Below are positions 37,904 through 39,014 of a stretch of DNA of 46,068 nt, piece by piece. Positions within the stretch are counted from its first letter, which is position 1. The number at the start of each line of letters is the position of its first letter. The notes under the pieces were generated by a model. It saw nothing but the letters and a program-made list of their open reading frames with translations. It made no database searches and had not been told where the DNA came from. The stretch is from the sequence record ON470605. One strand, given 5' to 3'. The position numbers and the translations under genes were made by a program. Source of the stretch: Escherichia phage vB_EcoP-720R6.

Positions 37904-38227
37904 ATGGATGCACAAACACGCCGCCGCGAACGTCGCGCAGAGAAACAGGCTCAATGGAAAGCAGCAAATCCCCTGTTGGTTGGGGTAAGCGCAAAACCAG
38001 TTAACCGCCCTATTCTCTCGCTGAATCGCAAACCGAAATCACGAGTAGAAAGCGCACTGAATCCGATAGACCTTACGGTGCTGGCTGAATACCACGAACA
38101 GATTGAAAGCAACCTGCAACGTATTGAGCGCAAGAATCAGCGCACATGGTACAGCAAGCCTGGCGAACGCGGCATAACATGCAGAGGACGCCAGAAAATT
38201 AAAGGTAAATCTATATCACTTATTTAG
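37904..38227 (+). CDS. N: Antitermination protein N
   Basis: 107 aa [64 protein letters not shown]..., Arg-rich motif; essentially lambda N. Confidence 0.95.
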
Positions 38228-38714
38228 AAAATGCAGATTTAGGGAACAGATAGGAGGCGTTACACCTATGGCATCTCATCCTATGGTTAGAAGGTGGTGC
38301 AAATCCTTCGTATTGAAGTATGGATTTCACAGAAGATTCATAGCATTGAGCGCAAAGATAGTGCATTGGCTGACCGGTATTTGCCGATTTTTTGAGACGA
38401 TAAACCACCGTAGCAACAGTAGGTGTATACATCTCATAGTTTTTCTTTTCCTCTTCCCACTTAGAGGCTCGATTTATCTTTTCTTCAAGCTCAATAATCT
38501 TGTCCTTAGAAATCATCAAAAGCTCATTAAGTGACATTTGCTGCTGTTGGGCATCCATGAGCTTATCGACAAGTTCGTATGTTTTTTCTTTTACTGAGTA
38601 GTCTATTTGCATTTTCTGGATTTCCTTTACTGCGCCAACAGCACTCATCAGAGCACCTCCGGCACCAGAAACTGCATCTGTAATCCTACTTATTATTCCT
38701 TTTTCATCAGACAT
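38220..38714 (-). CDS. Hypothetical protein, antisense to the pL operon: Gly/Ala-rich N-terminal segment, coiled-coil, C-terminal CxxC...CxxC zinc-ribbon-like motif
   Basis: ATG at 38714 (ORF-track frame 38220..38723 starts at an alternative codon); 3' end overlaps the N stop convergently; CAQC-x24-CHRC. Confidence 0.55.
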
Positions 38715-38730
38715 ATAAATCACTCTCTTA

Positions 38731-38775
38731 CTGTAGGGGTAAGAGGATTTTACTATTTTTCTCGCTGTAGGGGTA
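38731..38775. repeat. Direct repeat CTGTAGGGGTA x2 (34-bp spacing) upstream of the antisense gene
   Basis: CTGTAGGGGTA at 38731-38741 and 38765-38775. Confidence 0.4.
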
Positions 38776-38834
38776 CACGAGAACCACCGAGCCTGATGTG
38801 GTTAAAAGACAGGCATACTAATAAACACTGCACT

Positions 38835-38862
38835 GTGTATTCATTCCAACGAGTGAATACAC
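38835..38862. promoter_or_regulatory. 28-bp near-perfect palindrome (11/12-bp arms, 4-nt centre)
   Basis: GTGTATTCATTC-caac-GAGTGAATACAC; no adjacent U-tract on either strand. Confidence 0.35.
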
Positions 38863-39014
38863 GGAGCAATGTCGCTCGTAACTAAACAGGAGCCGACTTG
38901 TTCTGATTATTGGAAATCTTCTTTGCCCTCCAATGTGAGGGCCTTTTTATATGCATACCAATAACGCTTCACTCGAGGCGTTTTCGTTATGCAATCAAAC
39001 AGAAGGAGCATCCT

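Follow-up and report, generated by a model that had tools for sequence, protein, structure and literature searches.

The gene opposing pL in Escherichia phage vB_EcoP-720R6 very probably encodes the prophage defence protein Rip1 in the classical sieB position

What kind of gene stands directly behind the antiterminator gene N of a lambdoid prophage and runs against the pL operon? This question arises in Escherichia phage vB_EcoP-720R6 (sequence record ON470605), where a minus-strand gene converges with N and is preceded by direct repeats and a palindrome. We analysed the whole stretch of 46,068 nucleotides, which we call the window and to which all coordinates refer. A sequence-only reading of this locus had described a 164-codon gene overlapping the N stop by 8 bp, and had taken it for a moron expressed in the lysogen for exclusion, abortive infection or host modulation. 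The open reading frame is present as described, with the convergent 3' ends of N and the gene sharing 38220-38227. We found, with a probability of roughly 90%, that it encodes Rip1, a known, structurally characterised prophage defence protein that serves as both sensor and effector. Because the protein has been structurally characterised as Rip1 and its gene, rip1, occupies the classical sieB position, both the gene and the layout of the slot are already known.

We assign the gene to Rip1 because its product is near-identical to Rip1 of phage HK446. The sequence-only reading had proposed structure prediction and a remote homology search, and the latter matched chain 9oox_L of the Protein Data Bank (PDB) at E = 1.4e-105, with Y96H as the sole difference over residues 3-164. 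PDB entry 9OOX, solved by cryo-electron microscopy, contains 12 chains of Rip1 ("ring interacting pore 1") together with 11 copies of a 'Small terminase protein' (9oox_A), which is T4 gp16 according to a search of the PDB with that protein (E = 4e-106). In HK446 the counterpart is gp37 (YP_007111990). Its gene likewise adjoins a lambda-type N, overlaps it by the same 8 bp and shares the sequence upstream, and the DNA is 99.5% identical across window positions 37559-38948. A literature search on Rip1 in connection with HK446 found no paper. The phages around the two genes are nonetheless different. HK446 is an HK97-like siphovirus, whereas the window holds a CUS-3-like P22-type prophage with an endosialidase tailspike, and the small terminase and portal of HK446 are without sequence similarity to those of the window.

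Rip1 is treated in two secondary sources, PMC13434031 and PMC12908700, which both cite Patel, McCarthy, Taylor et al. 2026 (Nature 651:1060, doi 10.1038/s41586-025-10075-1). According to both, Rip1 is a single-protein defence of prophages that is not toxic on its own, and escape mutations fall in portal genes of Pseudomonas phages and in small terminase genes of E. coli phages. Both also place 12 Rip1 subunits around an 11-mer terminase ring, and report that Rip1 pores formed on small-terminase or portal rings cause infected cells to lyse prematurely, so that the infection is aborted. PMC13434031 further describes an N-terminal amphipathic helix, contact with the ring via the C-terminal half, and pore activity in the form of dye release from liposomes and holes in cells. 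According to the same source, the founding member of the family comes from a Pseudomonas aeruginosa prophage. It bears the same family name and a ring-templated pore is reported for it, but its gene is flanked by those for the small and the large terminase, and its trigger is portal proteins (PMC13434031).

The AlphaFold2 model of the window protein has two helices, at residues 7-34 and 39-90, and a C-terminal domain rich in beta structure (93-158), and so shows the N-terminal helix, long helix and C-terminal domain of Rip1. The N-terminal helix is predicted at low confidence (predicted local distance difference test, pLDDT, 42-58), and the Eisenberg hydrophobic moment of residues 1-26 is moderate at 0.35-0.41. 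The Gly/Ala-rich N-terminal segment pointed out earlier is there. So are two C-terminal CxxC motifs (CAQC at residue 121 and CHRC at residue 148), although 23 residues lie in between and not the 24 of the motif as first written. An alternative GTG start three codons upstream would extend the protein to 167 aa.

The sequence-only reading had expected the pL operon to continue on the plus strand at this point. A gene opposing pL is not unusual here: lambda, P22, VT1-Sakai and others regularly carry sieB in this position. The lambda gene, sieB (lambdap48), opposes pL and borders directly on the N stop, and the same arrangement is found in P22, VT1-Sakai, SPN9CC, Oslo and SEN22. The pL operon of the window runs on the plus strand, with the repressor gene at 36710-37411, and its match to lambda can be followed through the locus: the nutL region beside pL is 98.9% identical, 37857-38227 is the match to lambda N, 38730-38815 shares 87% identity with the 86 bp that directly precede lambda sieB, 38820-38952 corresponds at 97% identity to the stretch between ral and ea10 in lambda, and 38953-39038 matches the lambda region beyond ea10. 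It follows from these flanks that the window lacks ral and ea10 and that rip1 has replaced the sieB coding sequence.

The promoter has stayed with the slot. Window positions 38731-38815 align ungapped, at 87% identity, with the P22 stretch annotated as 'sieB promoter'; this promoter is annotated in both P22 records, and BK000583 also carries a 'sieB RNA start site'. Transferred to the window, the annotation would put the rip1 transcription start at the A at 38740 and give the mRNA a 26-nt leader. The -10 hexamer keeps its register elsewhere, as TAAACT in lambda and P22, TATAAT in Proteus and TAGTAT in Pantoea. The gene thus stands opposite to pL behind a promoter of its own that is homologous to the annotated P22 sieB promoter. 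Together with the near-identity to HK446 Rip1, this bears out the idea of a lysogen-expressed moron acting in exclusion or abortive infection.

The direct repeats belong to this promoter. The copies of CTGTAGGGGTA lie, as reported earlier, 34 bp apart from start to start (38731-38741 and 38765-38775), the similarity extends to 16 nt at 88% identity, and no further copy of the 10-mer core is present in the 46-kb window. Both decamers are exact, at the same 34-bp spacing, in 10 of 10 reference lambdoid phages that have the promoter (lambda, P22, HK620, HK446 and VT1-Sakai among them), whatever cassette follows. They are also exact in Pantoea, where the 24-nt spacer is only ~54% identical to that of the window, and in Proteus copy 2 differs at the last base only. 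We further surveyed 120 loci anchored on the upstream block, a sample that is for this reason unbiased for the decamers. Copy 2 was replaced (ACCCCCTTAT...) in only ~12 of them, all without a minus-strand gene after the promoter remnant; in the remaining loci it was altered by no more than an additional C or one changed base. Since they are kept across phages, cassettes and genera, the decamer repeats are, as judged from sequence conservation, genuine, under selection and an element of the shared sieB-type promoter. The suggestion that they might be private to this gene fails accordingly: the repeats do co-occur with rip1 homologues in other prophages, but equally with sieB and other cassettes. 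In ten gene-less loci we observed that the promoter remnant is kept to about +1 and is followed by a CCCCCT...AGGGGG hairpin and then by the apparent 3' end of a pL-sense gene.

Several points weigh against the assignment to Rip1 or against the way in which Rip1 is thought to work here. Searches for Rip1 gave nothing significant in Pfam (best E = 0.027), PADLOC 2023 (E = 0.019) or NCBIfam 2026 (no match), collections that predate the description of Rip1 or have no model for it. The data on mechanism come from the HK446 protein, which differs from the window allele by Y96H, and the mechanistic details come from the secondary sources PMC13434031 and PMC12908700 and from PDB entry 9OOX. The rip1 promoter and start are transferred from P22 by homology; a consensus promoter scan did not call the promoter, there is no canonical -35 (TTGACA-like) hexamer at decamer 1, and inspection by eye found no convincing match to a -35 hexamer or to an alternative sigma-factor motif over that decamer. 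That antisense transcription from pL lowers rip1 expression, and that Rip1 does not recognise the resident small terminase, we infer.

The single substitution, the missing -35 element and the uncalled promoter could also mean that this Rip1 homologue is silent or altered in specificity, through Y96H or an inactive promoter variant, and adds no immunity. We regard this as unlikely. Prophages of different genera share the promoter architecture, always with the -10 in a fixed register, and the TAAAAT of the window is nearer to consensus than the annotated TAAACT of P22. Decay of rip1 is argued against by the allele itself, which is 100% DNA-identical in many E. coli genomes.

Given its position, could the product instead be a SieB-type exclusion factor, which would sit in the membrane and abort superinfection in the way SieB does? 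The slot, the convergence on N and a promoter homologous to that of sieB in lambda, P22, VT1-Sakai, SPN9CC, Oslo and SEN22 would all fit. So would the phage HK620, whose record already notes the homologue hkaP as a 'putative superinfection exclusion protein'. HkaP (NP_112049) is 27% identical to Rip1 (E = 3e-13), has the same length of 164 aa and keeps both cysteine pairs. The promoter in HK620 is the same one, with window positions 38712-39038 aligned at 93% overall and 38715-38960 at 98.8%. DNA similarity to the window begins at the rip1 ATG (38712), but the hkaP coding sequence has diverged and a further gene, hkaQ, separates hkaP from N. A literature search found no paper on hkaP, only unrelated acronyms. 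Against SieB stand the lack of sequence similarity to lambda SieB (best BLASTP E = 9.4), the predicted fold of two long helices plus a beta domain with cysteine motifs, and above all the near-identity with a different, structurally solved protein. Homology of the window protein to SieB is thereby refuted, and we consider action by the SieB mechanism highly improbable.

What Rip1 shares with SieB of lambda and P22 is the slot, converging on N or gene 24, a homologous promoter that includes both decamers, and a role in exclusion or abortive infection exerted from the lysogen; the proteins are unrelated. The P22 sieB system has in addition Esc and the sas antisense RNA. We considered whether rip1 might also hold an Esc-like internal start. 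An in-frame Met23 is preceded by a GGAGG Shine-Dalgarno sequence at 7-nt spacing (38646-38660, minus sense GGAGGTGCTCTGATG). Despite this strong GGAGG, M23 and M35 vary among close homologues, Met23 being K or V even in homologues that are 88-92% identical, and we rejected the candidate. A truncated, Esc-like Rip1 product is unlikely because Met23 is not conserved, and no conserved internal start of this kind was found in Rip1.

Rip1 itself belongs to a large and widely spread family. At the DNA level, rip1 occurs at ~99.5% identity in phages HK446 (gp37) and ev099 and at >=99% identity in 96 of 5426 complete E. coli genomes, where all 100 places are chromosomal. It adjoins N in nearly all of the E. 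coli matches listed and is labelled 'hypothetical protein' in every one of them; in PHROGs it matches only phrog_1244, of 'unknown function' (E = 4e-53). A word-indexed search retrieved 29 Rip1 clusters, from Escherichia, Citrobacter, Edwardsiella, Pantoea, Providencia, Serratia and Proteus. With an exhaustive profile search the number rose to 2964 representative clusters at E<=1e-3, of which 1387 reach E<=1e-10. Among full-length representatives of the family, 137 of 142 have the pattern CxxC-x(18-30)-CxxC. That the gene is instead a zinc-ribbon or coiled-coil regulator, a nucleic-acid-binding early protein without a defence role, or a spurious antisense open reading frame, as a sub-threshold match to Pfam Zn_ribbon_4 (E = 0.087) and the annotation of an opposite-strand frame in ev099 might suggest, is hardly credible for a member of so large a family that is conserved as protein down to 27-45% identity with invariant cysteines, has a solved structure named Rip1, and is an annotated coding sequence in HK446 and in the E. 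coli RefSeq genomes listed. The ev099 RefSeq record (NC_049953) places an 88-codon frame at 2669-2935, antisense to rip1 (window 38268-38534, plus strand), and omits rip1; this call is probably a misannotation.

Rip1 is not the only tenant of the slot. We examined the gene behind the sieB-type promoter in at least 120 IMG/VR contigs and counted, among the matches listed and not as population frequencies, 87 SieB-type genes, 25 of the Rip1/HkaP type and 6 coding for another membrane protein. Prophages of Proteus mirabilis and Pantoea dispersa have Rip1 homologues, 45% and 63% identical, behind the same promoter, each antisense and located between the repressor/N region and Erf or RecT genes. 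A third cassette follows the same promoter in eight loci, including ones from Moellerella, Proteus penneri and Morganella. It codes for proteins of 172-184 aa with hydrophobic segments (MPNWIEAVIAYLKQ...) and at most 21-23% identity to lambda SieB, which could be remotely related to SieB or represent a different exclusion protein.

How would Rip1 act from this slot? In the lysogen, the repressor would silence pL while a sieB-type promoter belonging to rip1 drives its transcription leftward with respect to pL, as homology suggests. When an unrelated phage reaches late gene expression, its small-terminase ring (T4 gp16 in the solved complex) or its portal would serve as the template. About 12 Rip1 subunits would bind this ring through the C-terminal half, which here carries the cysteine motifs, and their N-terminal amphipathic helices would form a membrane pore, so that the cell is permeabilised before progeny are completed. 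On induction of the prophage, N-antiterminated transcription from pL would run antisense across rip1 and probably lower its expression. In the sieB slot, rip1 is one of several interchangeable cassettes that use a single conserved promoter module.

The resident phage presumably also escapes recognition by its own Rip1. The same allele is found with three mutually dissimilar sets of small terminase and portal, in the window, HK446 and ev099. The small terminases are of different types: that of the window, encoded at 26206-26646, has an Sf6-like C-terminus (Sf6 gp1), that of HK446 is of the HK97 type and that of ev099 of the lambda Nu1 type. We rejected the resident small terminase as the trigger seen in the solved structure, as the proteins of all three phages match other PDB families and not 9oox_A.

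Transcription of rip1 may itself reach beyond the gene. A terminator scan found no dedicated rip1 terminator on the minus strand, and the transcript may run antisense through all of N. The first terminator-like site on the minus strand 3' of rip1 is the complement of nutL boxB with a T-run, at 37635-37621. On the plus strand, in the pL sense, a hairpin with a T-rich tract behind it lies at 38724-38746. It is specific to cassettes of the Rip1/HkaP type and could be a weak terminator or a structure in the antisense RNA.

Upstream of the promoter, at about -42 to -74, lies a conserved block with two interleaved helices. Read in the minus sense, GCCTG (38814-38810) pairs with CAGGC (38795-38791), and AACCAC (38803-38798) with GTGGTT (38787-38782), a topology that corresponds either to an H-type pseudoknot or to two alternative hairpins. 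Among 31 distinct promoter regions from prophages of Enterobacterales, pairing was present in 92.6% of cells and both sides had changed in 14 cells against 1.9 in shuffles, a score that 0 of 500 shuffles reached. Compensatory examples include ACCCTC/GAGGGT, AACCTCA/TGAGGTT and GCCGGG/CCCGGC, and slid registers gave only 17-45% pairing. Counts of G-U and A-C combinations (6 versus 8) favoured neither strand. An Rfam scan of 37300-39500 returned only chance-level snoRNA matches, and no description of conserved twin decamers with covarying helices was found in searchable papers and database records.

These elements raise the possibility of RNA-based control. In the pL sense, the complement of each decamer (CUGUAGGGGU) falls in a predicted hairpin that exposes a G-run, and we speculate that such a run would suit antisense kissing with the 5'-terminal ACCCCUACAG of the mRNA, on the model of the sas RNA of P22. 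Neither P22 record annotates a sas feature, and a literature search under that name found no paper on sas RNA. A broader, tentative proposal, which we hold to be doubtful, is that the sieB-type promoter module is a conserved regulatory socket of twin ACCCCTACAG decamers and covarying helices into which non-homologous defence cassettes (SieB, Rip1/HkaP and others) are plugged. Its elements might mediate control by a pL-sense antisense RNA, as with sas in P22, or by some other factor, and so give the resident phage and its siblings self-immunity to Rip1 during lytic growth.

The 28-bp near-perfect palindrome, also noted in the sequence-only reading, is real, but its connection with the gene did not hold up. 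It lies ~95 bp upstream of the inferred rip1 start, and the segment is matched in most of 389 phage records that have the upstream region, mostly at >=95% identity. The Sf6 record labels it 'bsq4; boundary sequence', adjacent to tL2A, in a phage that lacks both the decamers and any gene in the slot. Since it is present in a phage without a slot gene, the palindrome is not specific to rip1 and belongs to the lambdoid boundary sequence and tL2 region of the pL operon. In the fold of plus-strand RNA from 38825-38960, the 12-bp hairpin of the palindrome is followed by another hairpin and by tL2a, with z = -5.6 against shuffles. With this fold, and with the repeats exact in ten phages, neither repeats nor palindrome look like chance.

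Table 1. Coordinates of rip1, its promoter region and neighbouring elements in the window.
Feature	Position	Strand	Basis and remarks
pL promoter (TTGACT-17-TACTAT)	37537-37565	plus	Promoter scan; transcripts antisense through rip1 when derepressed
N, lambda-type antiterminator	37904-38227	plus	Open reading frame list; 96% DNA identity with lambda N region
rip1 coding sequence	38220-38714	minus	ATG start, 164 aa; Gly/Ala-rich helix, long helix, C-terminal beta domain
Shine-Dalgarno-like AAGAGAG	38723-38729	minus	8 nt 5' of rip1 ATG; read from sequence
Hairpin CTCTTAC/GTAAGAG with T-rich tract	38724-38746	plus	Terminator scan, fold, alignment
Decamer copy 2 (ACCCCTACAG)	38731-38740	minus	+1 to +10 of inferred rip1 mRNA; ungapped P22 alignment
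-10 hexamer TAAAAT	38747-38752	minus	Alignments and P22 promoter annotation
Decamer copy 1 (ACCCCTACAG)	38765-38774	minus	-34 to -25, place of -35 element
Two interleaved helices	38782-38814	plus or minus	Conserved block, covariation
Palindrome/hairpin	38835-38862	plus	12-bp arms, one mismatch, 4-nt centre
tL2a-type intrinsic terminator of the pL operon	38925-38952	plus	Terminator scan; 'tL2A' annotation in HK620 and Sf6
tL2b-type terminator	38963-38984	plus	Terminator scan; 'tL2B' annotation in HK620

The wider window identifies the carrier of rip1 as a prophage, with an integrase, a P22-type virion module and an adjoining bio operon. The segments 2114-7628, 8353-11298 and 44998-46068 account for the bio operon with a ybhB-like gene, for CUS-3-like prophage sequence and for a lambda-type integrase at the far end, and the tailspike of the CUS-3-like prophage is an endosialidase specific for the K1 capsule. 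The bio operon, the endosialidase tailspike and the far-end lambda-type integrase together indicate that the prophage resides in a K1-type E. coli, at the attachment site used by lambda.

Our survey of the slot also turned up lambda sieB-region sequence, essentially identical over 137 nt around the promoter, in assemblies from unrelated organisms, among them Streptomyces, Paenibacillus, Bradyrhizobium and Vibrio (21 loci). Many of these contigs are short and of low coverage, and SieB is 99% identical where the open reading frame is complete. This looks like contamination of public assemblies with lambda DNA.

The practical value of identifying rip1 lies in annotation, as a characterised pore-forming defence still goes by the name 'hypothetical protein' in all E. 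coli genomes listed. Its identity predicts that this K1-type lysogen resists T4-like phages, a point of concern where K1 strains are to be treated with phages. Since Rip1 uses the classical sieB promoter and its slot is exchangeable, looking at the gene that follows a sieB-type promoter offers a simple search route to further prophage defence cassettes. What remains of interest beyond the gene is the promoter socket that these cassettes share, with its conserved twin decamers and covarying helices.
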